Of a stretch of DNA of 64,000 nucleotides, positions 7,915-16,010 are shown in pieces. Each line of letters opens with the position of its first letter. Position 1 is the stretch's first letter. Location: contig JAPDKA010000008.1 of the NCBI GenBank assembly GCA_029258825.1, forward strand, positions 39,548 through 103,547, read 5' to 3'. Position numbers and translations under genes: made by a program. The DNA is from an archaeon (lineage in GTDB: Archaea > Nanobdellota > Nanobdellia > Pacearchaeales > JAPDKA01). The notes under the pieces were generated by a model. That model made no database searches, was not told where the DNA came from, and saw only the letters and a program-made list of their open reading frames with translations.

Positions 7915-8715
7915 TCATCCAAAACAAATATGGCGGAAATTACAGCGTTGACATTTCTTTAATATTGACGGCAACGGCATATTATCTTTATACTGTAAAT
8001 CAAATATTTCGTCGCGAAGTTGCAGCACTTTTTGTTTTAATGTGTTGGTTATGGTTATTTGTTTTGTTTTATTGCTGTATTCTATAAAACCTGTATCAAC
8101 TTCTTGTTTATATTTGGCTTCTAGCAGCAATGCATAAGCTGTAACTTGCACTAGTTCAGAATCGTACACAACATCATTAAAAGCACGGGATTTCATTTCA
8201 TAAGGATAATATCTATTAGCGTCAATCTTTACCCTGTCTATTCTCCCTTTAAGTTTTAACTCATCGCTCGATATTTTTATCTCGCTAATGTATTTTGGTT
8301 TTAGCATTAACCATAGTTTTTGTTTTTCTATGCCTTGAAGCAGTAAACTTGAAATAGGTTGTAATCTTAATTTTATTTCACGCATAGCATATGCTAAAAA
8401 CTCGCTTAGCATTTCTCTCTTGTCAAGCTTGAAAGCACTTATTTTTTCGCTGTATCTTTCAAACAACTTGCTTGCTGTGCTTATAAAATGCTGCTTATAT
8501 GCTTCTATTATGTTTGCTATACTGTAATCGCATGTGATGGCAGAAACAACTTTATGCTCTGTTTTGCTAAATGCTTCCATGATCTTATGTTTTATTTCAC
8601 CCTTAACCATATGTTCATTTACAGGCTCTTTGATTTGCTTTACAAGTTTCAGCCAAAGTTTCCGCTTACAAAACACATATGTGCATAAATCAGTAACATC
8701 AAGCAGTTGTTTCAT
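7915..8715 (-). CDS. Cas4-like PD-(D/E)xK nuclease with a 4-Cys cluster (stand-alone)
   Basis: One N-terminal Cys (LCTYVFCKRKLW) plus C-terminal Cx2Cx5C (CQRCNFRHIC), the Cas4/DUF83 Fe-S arrangement. The central region (GRIDRV ... YEMK) fits a RecB-type nuclease core. Confidence 0.7.
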   Translation of the reverse strand: MKQLLDVTDLCTYVFCKRKLWLKLVKQIKEPVNEHMVKGEIKHKIMEAFSKTEHKVVSAITCDYSIANIIEAYKQHFISTASKLFERYSEKISAFKLDKREMLSEFLAYAMREIKLRLQPISSLLLQGIEKQKLWLMLKPKYISEIKISSDELKLKGRIDRVKIDANRYYPYEMKSRAFNDVVYDSELVQVTAYALLLEAKYKQEVDTGFIEYSNKTKQITITNTLKQKVLQLRDEIFDLQYKDNMPLPSILKKCQRCNFRHICFG

Positions 8716-10085: not shown

Positions 10086-11234
10086 TTAAAGAATCAATAT
10101 TCTCCACCCTCTTTCTTTAGCAATCTTCTCATAAATAGAATAAATCCTATTAGCTTTATCTGCAATCACTCTCCAATCCCTATCTTCTTTCATAGACTCG
10201 GCAATAGCAATGATATCATTAATTCCATATTGCTTTAACAATCTCTTTGCCTTTTCTCCTTTTATTAATTCCTTAATATATCCATGACCATTCAAGATGC
10301 CTTCTCCCACAATATTATATAGTATGACTTGATCAACCAATCCATGACTTAATGCAACCAAACTAAGAGCAAAATCTCCCTTAATATCCACCCCAACCAC
10401 TTGATTAGCTTTCCCACCATATGATACAACCTCATTAAGAGCCCAATATCCCTCAATACCTGCTCCAATCACTTGACTAACCCACCCACCATATGATGCA
10501 ACACTACCAAGAGCATTACCTTCCTTAATCCCTACCCCAATAACTTGATTAACCTTCCCATTATTCGATGCAACACTATGAAGAGTAAGATTTCCCTTAA
10601 TCCCTACCCCAATAACTTGATTAACCATCCCATTATTATATGATGCAACACCCCAAAGAGCCCTATCTCCCTCAATATTCACCCCAATAACTTGATTAAC
10701 CCTTCCATCTTCTGATGCAATCCCGCTAAGAGCCCAATTTCCCTTAATCCCTACCCCAACTACTTGATTAGCCCACCCACCTTTTGATGCAACTTCTTCA
10801 AGAGCATGATCCCCGACCAAATTCTTAACTATAACAACATCAGCATACTTAGTATAATAGAATAAATAATTAAACTCATTCCAACCAAAATCAATCTCAA
10901 TAATTGTTCTCTTCCTAAATCTTTTTTTATCCGTTAAATAGCTTAACAACACACCAGACAAGAAACCAACCCTTCTCCAAATTTCCTCATCATAATCCTT
11001 ATTACACTGAGACAACACAAAACCAACCAAATCATCTTCATTATATTCTATTTTACTCACAATCTCTCTAAGTTTTTCTCTTTCTCTTTTAATATCTTTA
11101 TGTTCATACTTGTCCAAATTTATCTTAATTTCCCCTATAACAATCTTATCATTCAACTCCAGCAAATCGTCTAATGCTGTCCTTTCTCTTCTTTTAATTT
11201 CCCTTTCCTTTATTCCTTTTAAATCATCAAACAT
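10086..11234 (-). CDS. solenoid-repeat protein B of the MoxR/vWA operon (382 aa)
   Basis: Seven units of about 24 aa built around NQVIGVxIKGxxAL..VAS. The N-terminal 32 aa are identical to 13046-14245 and the C-terminal roughly 60 aa are near-identical. Overlaps the upstream gene by 8 nt. Confidence 0.8.
   Translation of the reverse strand: MFDDLKGIKEREIKRRERTALDDLLELNDKIVIGEIKINLDKYEHKDIKREREKLREIVSKIEYNEDDLVGFVLSQCNKDYDEEIWRRVGFLSGVLLSYLTDKKRFRKRTIIEIDFGWNEFNYLFYYTKYADVVIVKNLVGDHALEEVASKGGWANQVVGVGIKGNWALSGIASEDGRVNQVIGVNIEGDRALWGVASYNNGMVNQVIGVGIKGNLTLHSVASNNGKVNQVIGVGIKEGNALGSVASYGGWVSQVIGAGIEGYWALNEVVSYGGKANQVVGVDIKGDFALSLVALSHGLVDQVILYNIVGEGILNGHGYIKELIKGEKAKRLLKQYGINDIIAIAESMKEDRDWRVIADKANRIYSIYEKIAKERGWRILIL
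10290..10826 (-). repeat. coding tandem repeat, 7 units of about 24 codons (NQV[IV]G-x-x-I-[KE]-G core)
   Basis: Counted by eye in the translation: WANQVVGVGIKG, RVNQVIGVNIEG, MVNQVIGVGIKG, KVNQVIGVGIKEG, WVSQVIGAGIEG, KANQVVGVDIKG, LVDQVILYNIVG. Confidence 0.8.
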
Positions 11235-11237
11235 TTT
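11138..11237 (-). repeat. 100-nt perfect duplicate of 14149-14248 (5' end of the paralog plus 3 nt upstream)
   Basis: Base-by-base comparison shows the two copies are identical at an offset of 3011 nt. Confidence 0.9.
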
Positions 11238-13044
11238 CGTAGTAAAATTTGGATAGGAGATTTTTCATTATAGTCTTCTTTGAAAATTTTATAATATCTT
11301 CTCTGCTATTACATTTTAATACCTTTATTCCTTCATAAACTCCAGAGGTTTCATTATCATAACCAGGTATTTCAAGATCAAAGCCTCCTGTATGTATTAT
11401 TGTTGGCCTATATTGAGGATTTTCTTTCATAAATTCAATAACCTCATCGATGTTCTTTATCCCTCCATCTGTTATTATAACAAAATCTGTTATCTTTTTA
11501 CTTTCTGATCTTAGATTAGAAACATTTACATGTGCTCTCTTTATTAGATATTTCCTGAACAAAGGATTTCTTTTTACCTCTTCCTCTAACAGTTTATTAT
11601 CAAGTCTTAGATAATCCTGTTTACTCTTTTCAAGGTCTTCTTTAAGCCTCTCCATGTCTATAGATGTACCACCACCCTTATAACCACATAAGACAGCTAA
11701 AAGTTCATCCTCATCATAGCCATAGAAGATTTCACTTGTTTCAGAGTCAAATAAGGCAATACCAACTTTTGCATGACTCCTTAAATAACTTAATACAAAT
11801 ATTGCTCCAGCTATCGTAGCATAACATTTTTCATTTCTTGGATCTGGCATGCTTCCTGAAGCATCCTTATATAATATCAATGTAGGTAATGTTTCTATAG
11901 TAGCAGGATAAAGTACTTTTTCTGTCCTTATAGCCTTTGTTAATCCTGGTAATATCTTACCACCAGAATACCTTGTATCTGTATTGGTTACAGGATCTGT
12001 TAGTTTATAATCTTTTTGACCAAAAACAATATTAACACTTGATATACCTCTTATCCTTCTTGGTCTTATGTATATTCCATATTCCTTTGCAGCTTCTCTA
12101 TAATATTCCACTGTTCTTCTATCAGCAAGTTTTACATCTAAGCTTCCTATACCGATACCAACACCCCTTCCATCACTTCCTTCTTTTTCCTCTTCACCTA
12201 AGAAATGTTTTTTAATCTCTTCATAAACTCCTTTTGGCAATACTACTATCAATTTTCTAATAGCTTCCTCAACTTTCTTTTTAGCATCAATTGGTAAATC
12301 TTCAACATTCTCTTTTTTTATTAATCTACTTCCACCTGATTTACAGGCACAAATTAAAATCTTGTATGTTTTATTCTTTTCTTCCTCGAGTAGGGGTTTT
12401 ATTGCATTTCCGAACATTACCATTTGTGAATATTGAAATCCACAATCTTGTTTAGAATCAATGATTATTCTTTCAAGATCTTTAACAGCTTTCAATATTT
12501 TTTTCCTTGTTTTTCTATCAAATCTATCAAGATTAATGTCAACGTCAATATTCATCTTTTCTTTATAATAAAGCATCAAAGCAGTTATAACCTTCGAATC
12601 TTTAGCTAACATATAAATTGCTTTTAATGTTCTTGCTAATTTTTCTCTATTTATATCTTGGTAATATATAATCATGTTGTTCTCGAAGTCTGTGAAGAGT
12701 GCGTATATATCTTCTGCAAGTTCTCTAAACACCTTTTCAGCTTGATGAGATAAATACAGAGCCATGGAGAGTTCTCTTGGGTGGAAGATATAGTGTCCAA
12801 ATTCATGAGTGAACAATCCTTCAATTACAGTTTCAACATTTTCATGTTGTGAAAGTTGTCTTACAAAATCTTCATTTATACCAACAACAAGATTTAATAA
12901 GTCTATAAAGGCTGTTCTTTCTTCTTTTCTTACTCCTGGACCTTTTATTATTTTAGGCCCATCTAAAGGAGGCCTATAATAACTATTTTTAACATCCTCG
13001 AACTTTCTTATTATCAATTCCTCCAAATTTTGTTTAGCTTTCAT
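11227..13044 (-). CDS. HExxH metallopeptidase-like domain fused to a vWA domain (DUF2201-like architecture)
   Basis: HEFGH at residues 80-84 (nt 12793-12807). vWA MIDAS DASGS at residues 394-398 (nt 11851-11865) and a later IITDGG. Sits between the two repeat-protein genes with 1-nt and 8-nt junctions. Confidence 0.8.
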   Translation of the reverse strand: MKAKQNLEELIIRKFEDVKNSYYRPPLDGPKIIKGPGVRKEERTAFIDLLNLVVGINEDFVRQLSQHENVETVIEGLFTHEFGHYIFHPRELSMALYLSHQAEKVFRELAEDIYALFTDFENNMIIYYQDINREKLARTLKAIYMLAKDSKVITALMLYYKEKMNIDVDINLDRFDRKTRKKILKAVKDLERIIIDSKQDCGFQYSQMVMFGNAIKPLLEEEKNKTYKILICACKSGGSRLIKKENVEDLPIDAKKKVEEAIRKLIVVLPKGVYEEIKKHFLGEEEKEGSDGRGVGIGIGSLDVKLADRRTVEYYREAAKEYGIYIRPRRIRGISSVNIVFGQKDYKLTDPVTNTDTRYSGGKILPGLTKAIRTEKVLYPATIETLPTLILYKDASGSMPDPRNEKCYATIAGAIFVLSYLRSHAKVGIALFDSETSEIFYGYDEDELLAVLCGYKGGGTSIDMERLKEDLEKSKQDYLRLDNKLLEEEVKRNPLFRKYLIKRAHVNVSNLRSESKKITDFVIITDGGIKNIDEVIEFMKENPQYRPTIIHTGGFDLEIPGYDNETSGVYEGIKVLKCNSREDIIKFSKKTIMKNLLSKFYYENV

Positions 13045-13045
13045 T

Positions 13046-14245
13046 TTACCCCCTTACCAAATCCTTCCATCCCTTTTCTTTAGCAATCCTCTCATAAATT
13101 GAATAAATCTTATTAGCCTTATCTATCATCACTTTCCAATCTTTATCATCCCTCATAGATTCAGCAATAGCAATGATATCATTAATTCCATATTGCTTTA
13201 ACAATCTCTTTGCTTTCCTTCCTTTTATTAATTCACCAATAAGTCTAGAATGTTTCAAAACATATTTTCCAACAACATTGTACATTATAACCTGATTAGC
13301 CATTCCATAAAGAACGCCATTTCCCTTAATATCTACCTTAATAACTTGATTAACTTCTTCATATGATCCAACTCCATAAAGAGCAAAATTACCTTTAATA
13401 CAAGCTCCAATAACTTGATTAACTTTTCCACCCTCCGATGCAACCCTCCCAAGAGCATTATTCCCCTCAATATCTATCCCAATCACTTGATTAGCTCTTC
13501 CACGATATGATGCAACCTCACAAAGAGCCCCATCTCCACTAATCCCAACTCCAATAACCTGATTAGCTTTTCCACGATATCCAACCCTATAAAAGGCCAT
13601 ACATCCTTTAATATTTACTCCAATAACCTGATTAACTCCCCCACCTGATGCAACCTCACTAAGAGCATTACGCCCTTTAATATCTATTCCAATAACCTGA
13701 TCAACTTTTCCACGATAAAATGATGCAACCCTCCCAAGAGCATCATCCCCTTCAATATCTATCCCAATCACTTGATTAGCTTTTCCACCATATGATGCAA
13801 CACCGTAAAGAGCACTATTTCCAATCAAATTCTTCACTATAACAACATCAACACACTCAGCATAATAGAATAAATTATTAAATTCATTCCCACCAAAATC
13901 AATCTTAATAATTGTTCTCTTCCCTTCCTTCCAATTCTTCTCTGTTAAATAGCTTAATAACACACCAGAATAAAATCCAACCAATTCCCAAATTTTCTTG
14001 TCATAATCCTTATTACACTGAGACAATACAAAAGAAATCAAATCATTCTCATCATATTCTATTCTGCTTACAATCTCTTCGAGTTTTTTTCTTTCTCCAG
14101 AAATAACTTTTTTTGTAATCTTATTTAAATCAATCTTAATCTTCCCTCTAACAATCTTATCATTCAACTCCAGCAAATCGTCTAATGCTGTCCTTTCTCT
14201 TCTTTTAATTTCCCTTTCCTTTATTCCTTTTAAATCATCAAACAT
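13046..14245 (-). CDS. solenoid-repeat protein A of the MoxR/vWA operon (399 aa)
   Basis: Eight units of about 24 aa of the NQVIG type. Shares N- and C-terminal domains with 10086-11234. Confidence 0.8.
   Translation of the reverse strand: MFDDLKGIKEREIKRRERTALDDLLELNDKIVRGKIKIDLNKITKKVISGERKKLEEIVSRIEYDENDLISFVLSQCNKDYDKKIWELVGFYSGVLLSYLTEKNWKEGKRTIIKIDFGGNEFNNLFYYAECVDVVIVKNLIGNSALYGVASYGGKANQVIGIDIEGDDALGRVASFYRGKVDQVIGIDIKGRNALSEVASGGGVNQVIGVNIKGCMAFYRVGYRGKANQVIGVGISGDGALCEVASYRGRANQVIGIDIEGNNALGRVASEGGKVNQVIGACIKGNFALYGVGSYEEVNQVIKVDIKGNGVLYGMANQVIMYNVVGKYVLKHSRLIGELIKGRKAKRLLKQYGINDIIAIAESMRDDKDWKVMIDKANKIYSIYERIAKEKGWKDLVRG
13262..13834 (-). repeat. coding tandem repeat, 8 units of about 24 codons (NQVIG core)
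   Basis: Eight cores counted in the translation: KANQVIGIDIEG, KVDQVIGIDIKG, GVNQVIGVNIKG, KANQVIGVGISG, RANQVIGIDIEG, KVNQVIGACIKG, EVNQVIKVDIKG, MANQVIMYNVVG. Confidence 0.8.
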
Positions 14246-14248
14246 TTT
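14149..14248 (-). repeat. 100-nt perfect duplicate of 11138-11237
   Basis: Identical on direct comparison. Confidence 0.9.
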
Positions 14249-14263
14249 ACCTTCTATTGTTTT

Positions 14264-15700
14264 TTATTTTCTCTGATGTTTTAGGTAATTGCGGATCATG
14301 GATTCTAATACCAACATAGCTAAAGGATGGTCCGCATGTTTTAACATATCACGAGCTTCTTTCAGATCTTCTTTTGTGACCACTTCTTTTCCTACAAACT
14401 TATTAATAACTTTCCTTATATAGTTAAAAGAAGGATTACCTTGATCAGAAAAGTCTGTATAGTTTTGGTATGCAATTTTTACTAACTCTTTAGCAAGCGC
14501 ATGCCTCAAAGGAAGACTTCTTCCACTATTCAATACCTTCTGGTAGAATTCTTCTTCTGGGAATATTCTTCTTGGTGACGAAAATATAAACCCTGCCTTA
14601 ACATCCTCTATATCTACTTTATCCTTCCCAAGATACCACGCAATCATCTTTGATGTGTTTTCCCAATCTTTCATAAATCTGCCAGCAAACCCTATTTTGA
14701 TTTTCGTTGATAAATATTCTTTATCATGGCTACTATTTGATTTAGGGTCTTCAAACCTATTCCTTCCGTAGTAATGGCTATAATTGGCTTCAGCCAATAA
14801 GCTATAGAAAAACAATTTAGCTTCTGGATCAAATTCTAGAGATTCAATTTGTTCTTTTATTTTCTCTAATTCTCCATTATGGATTAAAGGAAGCCCTCTT
14901 TTCTCGTAAGCTTCATAAGTTATTTCCTGCAACTCTTTTATCTTTCTACATATCTTTTCATGATCATTCTTATTTTCTTTATAAAATTTAAAAAATTCAA
15001 GGACCTTCTCTTCAAGACCAAGCATCTCTTTTATTCTCCTGTCAGCATTCTCTACAATCTGTGCGTCCTCAAGCTCCACATATTCAGGAGGCCATAAAAC
15101 AATTGAATAATTATCAAGAAGATTCTCGTTAAGTGTAAATGTTCCACCGTAGACTTCCGGATTTATAGCTGATACAACAATCTGTTTTATTATCTTCCAT
15201 GAATGATTTGCATAATTCCAAACATCATTTGCAACACCCTCTCTAATCCTGTTTTGTTCCAGCTCCGAGAATCTGTTAAGCTCATCTATAACCAAGAAAG
15301 GCATTAAAAAAGGTAAATAAAGAAATGCAACATCTCTACCTTTATTTAACTCAGCTATATCGTGAGTAGCATATATATCATTTACAGTTGCTCCGGGGCT
15401 TCCAACAACCCTCCTCCAATCAAAAACTTCTATAGGAATTTGATAAAGTAATGAACCAATAACACAAGCAAGTCTCGTTTTCCCTTTACCGATATCTCCT
15501 TCTATTAAAGTGTTATTTCCCATAATAGAATTCAATACTAATAATGTTGTAGTTACTGGAATAAGTCTATGTTCTTTTCCTTCTTCTATTAATTCATAAG
15601 TTGAACTTTCACAGTAAATGTCTGTTGGATGTTCAGCAATCAAATTAGTATTTATATAATCCACAATCTTTCTTACCTTAGCTCTATAGTTAACACCCAT
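14264..15700 (-). CDS. MoxR-like AAA+ ATPase with a C-terminal extension
   Basis: Walker A GDIGKGKT and Walker B FLVIDELNR (MoxR-type DE[IL]NR). First gene of the four-gene operon. Confidence 0.75.
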   Translation of the reverse strand: MGVNYRAKVRKIVDYINTNLIAEHPTDIYCESSTYELIEEGKEHRLIPVTTTLLVLNSIMGNNTLIEGDIGKGKTRLACVIGSLLYQIPIEVFDWRRVVGSPGATVNDIYATHDIAELNKGRDVAFLYLPFLMPFLVIDELNRFSELEQNRIREGVANDVWNYANHSWKIIKQIVVSAINPEVYGGTFTLNENLLDNYSIVLWPPEYVELEDAQIVENADRRIKEMLGLEEKVLEFFKFYKENKNDHEKICRKIKELQEITYEAYEKRGLPLIHNGELEKIKEQIESLEFDPEAKLFFYSLLAEANYSHYYGRNRFEDPKSNSSHDKEYLSTKIKIGFAGRFMKDWENTSKMIAWYLGKDKVDIEDVKAGFIFSSPRRIFPEEEFYQKVLNSGRSLPLRHALAKELVKIAYQNYTDFSDQGNPSFNYIRKVINKFVGKEVVTKEDLKEARDMLKHADHPLAMLVLESMIRNYLKHQRK

Positions 15701-15919
15701 TTTGATTTCTGCTGTATTTTATTTTATCATTATGTCATAGTAATATTTTAGACTATTTAAACTTTTCGATTTTTACCATTATTAAAAGAAAACATCTAAT
15801 AAATTTTGTTTACTTTTTCACTATACTTGCTTTGCTTGTGTAGTGAGGTGATTGGGTTGATAGAAATAACTTTAAACTTTAAGCAAACTTTTTAAATCAA
15901 TCTGGCTTAGCAATTTTGT

Positions 15920-16003
15920 GCCGGGGTCGCCTAATTGGTATGGCGCCAGCCTGCTAAGCTGGTGGGCGTAATGCCCGTGTGGGTTCGAGTCCCACCCCCG
16001 GCG
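15920..16003 (+). tRNA. tRNA-Ser (anticodon GCU)
   Basis: Hand-folded cloverleaf. Acceptor GCCGGGG/CCCCGGC, anticodon stem CCAGC/GCTGG with loop CTGCTAA, long variable arm (TGGGCGTAATGCCCGTG), T-arm GTGGG-TTCGAGT-CCCAC, discriminator G. Confidence 0.9.
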
Positions 16004-16010
16004 TTTCAAA

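Follow-up and report, generated by a model that had tools for sequence, protein, structure and literature searches.

A MoxR-vWA gene pair linked to tandem arrays of predicted solenoid proteins in DPANN archaea

Results

Four linked genes in the window

Four codirectional open reading frames, called M, A, V and B, were found on the minus strand (positions 10086-15700) of the window, the 64,000-nucleotide stretch of contig JAPDKA010000008.1 (assembly GCA_029258825.1, an archaeon of the Pacearchaeales) analyzed in this work. M was assigned to the MoxR-class AAA+ ATPases, V combines an HExxH motif with a von Willebrand factor A (vWA) domain, and A and B are paralogs of a family named “R” here and defined by an N-terminal domain (“N-domain”) of approximately 130 residues. 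Genes for M, V and R were tightly linked in many other genomes, and the cluster is tentatively interpreted as a dedicated MoxR-vWA remodelling or processing machine (M and V) together with its own clients (R), a reading to which a probability of about 45% was given. This reading concerns the relationship between M, V and R; the alternatives weighed in the Discussion concern the biological role, and the readings overlap in part. The four genes were:

14264-15700, minus strand: M, MoxR-class AAA+ ATPase, 478 aa
13046-14245, minus strand: A, R-family protein, 399 aa
11227-13044, minus strand: V, HExxH half plus vWA domain, 605 aa
10086-11234, minus strand: B, R-family paralog of A, 382 aa

An earlier description of the window, made from its letters (the sequence-only reading), had proposed a four-gene operon in the order M-A-V-B and had given its three junctions as 18 nt, 1 nt and an overlap of 8 nt. 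Gene order and junction lengths (two gaps followed by the overlap) were reproduced by the open reading frame calls. The window cluster is real, but the unit found elsewhere was M plus V plus a tandem array of one to at least 28 R paralogs.

Linkage of M, V and R in other genomes

All fetched loci were scanned with local hidden Markov models (HMMs) of M, V and the R N-domain. Scans seeded with V recovered 14 loci in GTDB species genomes and 25 metagenome loci (about 35 distinct), nearly all of them labelled Woesearchaeota, Nanoarchaeia or Nanoarchaeota (DPANN); one came from an Archaeoglobus metagenome-assembled genome (MAG), and a few came from MAGs with a Methanosarcinales label. At every V-seeded locus of the close clade that had flanking DNA, R genes abutted V, and M abutted them where the upstream side was present. 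Co-occurrence outside the window, which the sequence-only reading had made a test of its proposal, was therefore found in many genomes. The genes around the cluster varied by locus (topoisomerase VI; methionine aminopeptidase; PCNA, primase and GINS; RNA polymerase), and the cluster thus behaves as a module. The number of R copies per locus was:

L006: 1
window: 2
L010: 3
L012: 4
L015: at least 8
L005: 9
L016: 16 (12 before V and 4 after)
L011: at least 19
L008: at least 28

In the largest array (L008, in a 196-kb contig of GCA_053533315.1), the tandem R genes, encoding proteins of about 200-320 aa, surround V at positions 1621-21737. Neighbouring R genes overlapped by a few to about 80 nt, with 13 nt between called genes, and a C-terminal sequence (AKIYHKG..VWP) and an N-terminal sequence (MAEI.DYL.GL.EQ) were conserved across each junction, so that the junctions are themselves repeated DNA. 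DPANN genomes are very small, yet this one spends more than 20 kb on tandem R copies beside an ATP-driven chaperone pair; so much sequence devoted to one family suggests strong selection.

Look-ups seeded with R added a locus arranged M-V-R-R-R (L051), nine R genes running up to a contig end (L050), and three R genes (L053; 2494-3438 and 8965-10996) that lie in the same genome as the L008 array but at a second site, away from its M and V genes. V predicts R strongly, and R predicts V only partly.

In distant V clades the third gene encoded GXGXG-like proteins (L017) or beta-helix-like proteins (L023), both present as tandem paralogs, or a single GXGXG protein (L024). Another distant M-V pair (L019; 9085-13375) had three 290-aa paralogs on its flanks (identities of 89% and 44%). 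These lack visible repeats and do not match the R N-domain, and so form a different, unrelated amplified family. No relative of V was found among the IMG/VR viral contigs with the patterns used.

The R family

A word-indexed search with the N-domain profile returned 11 proteins only, mostly paralogs from one genome. The exhaustive search of 1.84 billion representative proteins returned 1211 clusters at E <=1e-3, of which 430 reached E <=1e-10, and recovered B and the protein P0003 at about 1e-24; the family size is therefore given as at least 1211 protein clusters. The profile scored 129-133 bits for A and 119-123 bits for B. Its most conserved positions, D68 (92% conserved), F72, G94 and S98, were nearly invariant. 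The terminal domains had been called unassignable in the sequence-only reading, and the N-domain indeed had no relative in PDB or Pfam; it is not an orphan, however, but defines a large family composed mostly of GXGXG carriers.

The Pfam GXGXG domain (PF01493), a beta-helix known from FwdC/FmdC and from the C-terminal domain of glutamate synthase, was matched by 88 of 100 sampled R representatives (best E 2e-20). Besides GXGXG, these 100 proteins gave a single FapA match and nothing else. None of 60 sampled R proteins from the clade of the window matched PF01493 at E <=0.01, and neither did A or B. A link between the 24-residue solenoid of this clade and GXGXG was considered and rejected: hhalign gave 0.04% probability for the two solenoid types, in addition to the 60 negative clade members. 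The tie between both types is limited to the shared N-domain and the gene context. Whether the repeat proteins match a characterized family had been named as a possible refutation of their novelty: the solenoid in the window is not recognized by Pfam, but most members of the wider family carry the known GXGXG beta-helix.

Five R proteins of 385-517 aa (P0043, P0108, P0118, P0125 and P0140) carried two N-domain plus beta-helix modules per chain, and look like fusions of neighbouring array genes. Some R members have been automatically named FwdC, and two of these five “formylmethanofuran dehydrogenase subunit C”; this automatic naming is an annotation error.

A and B, the R proteins of the window

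A and B were 62% identical over their full length (E 3e-153). Anchors of the form [NDS]QV[IV], spaced 23-25 residues apart, delimited eight 24-residue units in A and seven in B, the copy numbers already reported for the two paralogs, and the contiguous run N-Q-V-I-G-V was conserved in each repeat. The following parts were distinguished:

13835-14245, minus strand: A, helical N-domain
13226-13834, minus strand: A, solenoid of 8 units
13046-13225, minus strand: A, three-helix C-terminal cap
10827-11234, minus strand: B, N-domain
10269-10826, minus strand: B, solenoid of 7 units
10086-10268, minus strand: B, C-terminal cap
13321-13819: 72-nt tandem array inside A (Tandem Repeats Finder, 7.0 copies, 68% matches)
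10352-10793: 72-nt tandem array inside B (Tandem Repeats Finder, 6.1 copies, 73% matches)

The AlphaFold model of A, built from three sequences (predicted local distance difference test, pLDDT, 88; predicted template modelling score, pTM, 0.88), showed a flexible stretch over the first 20 or so residues, a five-helix N-domain extending to about residue 106, approximately 10 solenoid rungs with one long strand per 24-residue unit, and a three-helix C-terminal cap. The repeats are thus modelled as a beta-solenoid with one strand per turn and helical caps at both ends, as the sequence-only reading had suggested checking. Capping of both ends argues for monomeric binders over end-to-end polymers. 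The extreme N-terminus of A is probably flexible, since it was modelled with low confidence; it is conserved nonetheless.

Foldseek of the A model against PDB gave a best E-value of 0.6, with noise from leucine-rich repeats (LRRs), tailspikes and pentapeptide repeats. An LRR fold was rejected: no LRR family of Pfam was matched, and the Foldseek hits to LRRK2 and LGR had E >=0.6 and template modelling scores (TM) <=0.27. Scans of the four window proteins against Pfam, NCBIfam, PADLOC, PHROGs and PDB sequences gave a sub-threshold AAA_3 match for M as the sole Pfam signal, and left A and B with no Pfam, NCBIfam, PADLOC-system or PHROG assignment. PADLOC gave a weak match of A to NsnC (E 0.0056 over 60 residues) and none for M, V or B. 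No signal peptide or membrane-like segment was detected in the four proteins. By sequence, A and B are members of a large N-domain family, with a solenoid that is new at the sequence level and a helical C-terminal cap.

M, the MoxR-class ATPase

M alone scored 20.2 bits with Pfam AAA_3, below the threshold of 27. The profile of its family (13 homologs) matched the solved MoxR structure 2r44 (E 2.5e-16), followed by the magnesium chelatase subunits ChlI/BchI. Among the 13 homologs, 9 matched AAA_3, 8 AAA_lid_2 and 6 AAA_5. The MoxR-like assignment made in the sequence-only reading was therefore upheld, by the 2r44 profile match and by AAA_3 and AAA_lid_2 in the homologs, and M is classified from these profiles as a MoxR-class AAA+ ATPase. 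Its motifs were:

15476-15499, minus strand: Walker A, GDIGKGKT, residues 68-75
15281-15286, minus strand: Walker B, DE, residues 139-140
15107-15118, minus strand: arginine-finger position occupied by Asn (LDNY, within LLDNYS), residues 195-198

In the alignment of the 13 homologs, G68, K74, T75, D139 and E140 were invariant, as were N180 (read as sensor 1) and the sensor-2 arginine R341. The arginine finger of MoxR proteins is the arginine of a “DRF” motif just before core strand 5 (PMC7159879). It was replaced by Asn in M and its six closest aligned relatives (7 of 13), but retained in the distant homologs and in 2r44. The replacement coincided exactly with the clade in which R proteins have the 24-residue type of solenoid; the clades with GXGXG-type R proteins keep DRF. 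Degenerate Walker, HExxH or MIDAS (metal-ion-dependent adhesion site) residues had been named as a possible refutation: all of these were intact, but the arginine finger was Asn in the clade of the window.

V, the HExxH and vWA protein

The word-indexed search recovered approximately 25 homologs of V, annotated only as hypothetical proteins from Woesearchaeota or Nanoarchaeota. V itself had no match in Pfam (DUF2201_N included), NCBIfam or PDB sequences; among 23 homologs, 2-3 gave weak matches to Pfam VWA and VWA_2. In the AlphaFold model of V (pLDDT 84), the N-terminal half was helical and the C-terminal half adopted a vWA fold, with the following motifs:

12793-12807, minus strand: HEFGH, residues 80-84, in the helical N-terminal half
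11851-11865, minus strand: MIDAS motif DASGS, residues 394-398, in the C-terminal vWA domain, completed by T460 and D526

Against PDB, the vWA fold was closest to NorD from the NorQD complex (9qhd_G, Foldseek E 7e-4) and to the VWF A3 domain (1e-3), with a probability of 1.00. The MIDAS residues D394, S396 and T460 were invariant, S398 and D526 were at least 90% conserved, and DxSGS was present in nearly all of 33 V homologs. The C-terminal half is accordingly modelled as a vWA domain with a complete MIDAS and a fold closest to NorD, in keeping with the sequence-only reading.

HExGH was kept in 29 of 33 distinct V homologs, covering all loci, so the HExxH motif pointed out earlier is conserved across the family. 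H80 was invariant, and E81, H84 and D119 were at least 90% conserved. D119, on the next long helix after HExxH in the model, is a candidate third metal ligand. A zincin-like peptidase fold is plausible for this half of V. Foldseek of full-length V against the BFVD predicted viral structures returned phage proteins named “VWFA”, CobT-like, “VWA-like” and “Metallopeptidase domain” (E down to 2.4e-10, TM 0.2-0.4). A “Metallopeptidase domain protein” matched the whole of V at E 4e-5 but with a TM of 0.26-0.34.

Sequence evolution of the repeat proteins

Between A and B, the ratio of nonsynonymous to synonymous substitution rates (dN/dS) was lowest in the C-terminal cap (0.28), intermediate in the N-domain (0.50) and highest in the repeats (0.78). 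In six aligned A/B repeat pairs the conserved scaffold positions gave 0.26 and the variable x positions 1.20, values taken from one gene pair and 48 codons and therefore indicative only. Across R paralogs, the number and sequence of the solenoid turns varied widely and the N-domain was kept.

The first 60 nt of A and B (14186-14245 and 11175-11234) were identical and included an exact 35-nt repeat (14195-14229 and 11184-11218). Such identity in spite of an overall synonymous divergence (dS) of 0.43 suggests either that the 5' end is under constraint or that gene conversion has acted locally.

Surroundings and composition of the cluster

The following features adjoin the cluster or lie close to it:

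15919-16004, plus strand: tRNA-Ser(GCT), 218 nt upstream of M
15754-15761, minus strand: TTTAAATA, archaeal TATA-box-like element read from sequence only, about 57 nt upstream of the M start codon
8699-10039, minus strand: fused PriS-PriL primase, 446 aa (small subunit at residues 103-245, large subunit at 248-360), directly downstream of B
7915-8715, minus strand: nuclease of the Cas4/PD-(D/E)XK-like type (Pfam Cas_Cas4, E 1.5e-16), Cys cluster at its C-terminus

The tRNA-Ser was next to the block, as described before, on the opposite strand. TTTAAATA is a candidate promoter of the cluster, and GAAGGT was found upstream of the A start codon. The primase gene, on the same strand, starts 46 nt past B, which leaves the 3' boundary of the transcript uncertain. 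A scan with bacterial promoter and terminator models gave 27 promoter-like sites (27.9 expected) and no terminators, and is uninformative for an archaeal host. The neighbours in the window were archaeal housekeeping genes: the fused primase, the Cas4-like nuclease, Rpo7, SppA, RtcA, PCNA and deoxyhypusine synthase.

The guanine-plus-cytosine (GC) content of the block was 0.331 against 0.342 for the window (32nd percentile). Its tetranucleotide usage was the most deviant in the window, with z 5.9 for A plus B and 2.6 for M plus V. The “foreign composition” claimed by the sequence-only reading thus holds for tetranucleotides, but GC was ordinary, the deviance came mainly from the repeat genes, and a foreign origin was not supported. 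No copy of the tRNA-Ser 3' end was found flanking the block.

Discussion

A proposed MoxR-vWA machine with putative clients

In all characterized MoxR-vWA pairs, the vWA MIDAS captures a client peptide and the ATPase remodels or releases the bound client (PMC7159879). Apart from R genes, no genes showed consistent linkage to M and V, and R proteins are therefore read as their putative clients. By this reading, V would hold R through its MIDAS site and/or its HExxH domain. The contact on R would likely lie in the conserved N-terminal region, either in the flexible leader (L-x-G-I-x-E) or at Asp68. ATP-driven movement of M would then remodel or release R, and the HExxH domain of V may clip it. 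The matured solenoids would expose the fast-evolving repeat positions as target-binding surfaces.

Several results weigh against this reading. With Asn at the position of the arginine finger, the ATPase cycle of M in the clade of the window may be weak or unusual. R genes also occurred, whether in arrays, in small groups or singly, with neither M nor V in the contig (L055, 959-11832, 14 copies; L056, 9537-13294; L054, 6953-8515; and the second R site L053), so R may act alone or in trans. The repeat-position dN/dS that would mark the binding surfaces has the narrow basis given above. A docking leader common to all third components was rejected, since a 24-position leader HMM left those of L017, L019 and L023 at noise; such a common docking leader is a by-eye lead only. 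Finally, Pfam DUF2201_N did not match the HExxH domain, which was compared only within full-length V.

Alternative roles

The first alternative is that R proteins are a germline repertoire for conflict or host recognition: diversified solenoid sensors or binders of virus or host-cell proteins, with M and V as an ATP-dependent threshold switch and the HExxH domain of V as effector protease, in parallel with the bacterial MoxR-vWA ternary systems. This role is considered rather unlikely, though the most probable of the alternatives. R copy number differs from one to at least 28 between genomes, solenoid length and sequence vary among paralogs with a conserved N-domain, the variable repeat positions have a dN/dS of about 1.2, flanking genes differ by locus in a module-like manner, and the fusion of a peptidase-like domain to vWA seen in V also occurs in the published ternary systems (PMC7159879). 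However, variable surfaces are expected in any weakly constrained solenoid, no credible PADLOC match was obtained, the third components that define the published classes were all absent from the cluster, no toxin-like effector besides HExxH was present, linkage to other defence genes was not seen, and the published systems keep the arginine finger (PMC7159879), which the clade of the window does not.

Slightly more doubtful is the stronger proposal that R arrays encode, in the germline, a set of variable solenoid binders comparable in archaea to the LRR-type receptor families, which would be loaded, licensed or proteolytically triggered by a MoxR-vWA-zincin machine and by which DPANN archaea would recognize viruses or host cells. 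If true, it would constitute a new class of archaeal immune or symbiosis-recognition system.

Another alternative, slightly less probable again, takes R proteins as the units from which a structure inside the cell or at cell-cell contacts is built, with M and V as chaperones of its assembly. MoxR-vWA pairs are documented assembly chaperones (PMC7159879), and by analogy p618 (MoxR-like) and p892 (vWA) of Acidianus two-tailed virus assist the growth of tail filaments. Beta-solenoids are common scaffold proteins, and the N-Q-V-I-G-V run implies that the outer face is conserved and could serve for lateral packing. The solenoid is nevertheless capped at both ends in the model, signal peptides and membrane segments are absent from the four proteins of the window, 28 divergent paralogs are not obviously needed for a structure, and no relatives were found on viral contigs with the patterns used.

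Cofactor maturation is very unlikely. Here, R proteins would be beta-helix enzyme subunits of the FwdC/GltS type into which M and V insert metal, like NorQ/NorD, CoxD/CoxE or CobS/CobT. The GXGXG matches of 88 of 100 R representatives, some automatically named FwdC, would fit, as would NorD as the best solved match of V and the resemblance of V to CobT-like phage proteins. A and B, however, have no GXGXG match, no conserved enzyme partner lies beside the cluster, arrays of many paralogs misfit a stoichiometric enzyme subunit, and the hosts are mostly DPANN archaea, which have a reduced metabolism.

The least probable alternative, judged very unlikely, is that the block was acquired horizontally, as an island or prophage remnant integrated at tRNA-Ser: this would account for the adjoining tRNA and the deviant tetranucleotide usage, but that deviance stems mainly from the repeat genes, GC is ordinary, the locus has no integrase and no att-like repeat of tRNA-Ser, its neighbours are housekeeping genes, the window proteins have no PHROG matches or viral-contig relatives, and related Woesearchaeota also carry the cluster among replication and translation genes.

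Comparison with known systems

The cluster shares with the MoxR-vWA pairs NorQ/NorD, RavA/ViaA, CbbQ/CbbO and CoxD/CoxE an adjacent MoxR-class gene and a vWA gene with a complete MIDAS. Unlike the NorQ/NorD-type pairs, it is linked to arrays of solenoid proteins, with no enzyme client nearby, V has an N-terminal HExxH domain, and M has Asn at the arginine finger in the clade of the window. MoxR-vWA biology has so far comprised metal loading of enzymes and assembly of ribosomes or virions; processing of R by M and V, if it occurs, would extend this list by a new type of client.

Kaur, Burroughs, Iyer and Aravind (2020) described MoxR-vWA ternary conflict systems of four classes: VMAP, iSTAND, FtsH and beta-propeller (PMC7159879). 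The likeness lies in the combination of MoxR and vWA with a third component that is variable and often bears repeats, and peptidase-vWA fusion occurs there too. The Pfam scan found no VMAP, inactive STAND NTPase, FtsH or beta-propeller in A, B or V, and bpMoxR matched one of the 13 M homologs (E 0.0086). With no VMAP, iSTAND, FtsH or propeller-bearing vWA protein, the cluster falls outside the four published classes. Its third component is instead a new family of N-domain plus beta-solenoid, tandemly amplified, its hosts are mostly DPANN archaea in contrast to the multicellular bacteria of the published systems, and the arginine finger is lost in the clade of the window.

Acidianus two-tailed virus p618 (MoxR-like) and p892 (vWA) are thought to chaperone a third, structure-forming protein (PMC7159879). 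They are likewise an archaeal MoxR-vWA pair, compared here by their published description only, but viral, whereas the window cluster is chromosomal. DUF2201-type and phage CobT-like vWA proteins share with V the order of a helical N-terminal half and a C-terminal vWA domain; they differ in giving no Pfam sequence match and TM of 0.2-0.4, and solenoid gene arrays have not been reported with them. Compared with the GXGXG beta-helix proteins, the solenoid of A and B sits at the same architectural place, after the N-domain, but has a unit of 24 residues with one long strand per turn.

According to the PADLOC models, the cluster matches no known anti-phage defence system. A full-text literature search, which did not cover one relevant review, found nothing on MoxR-vWA with GXGXG or solenoid arrays in archaea. 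If R solenoids are variable binders, they would offer a concrete handle on host or virus recognition by uncultured episymbiotic archaea. The M-V core, a MoxR-vWA pair, is of a known kind; the novelty lies in the third component, in its solenoid subtype with 24-residue units and in its tandem amplification.

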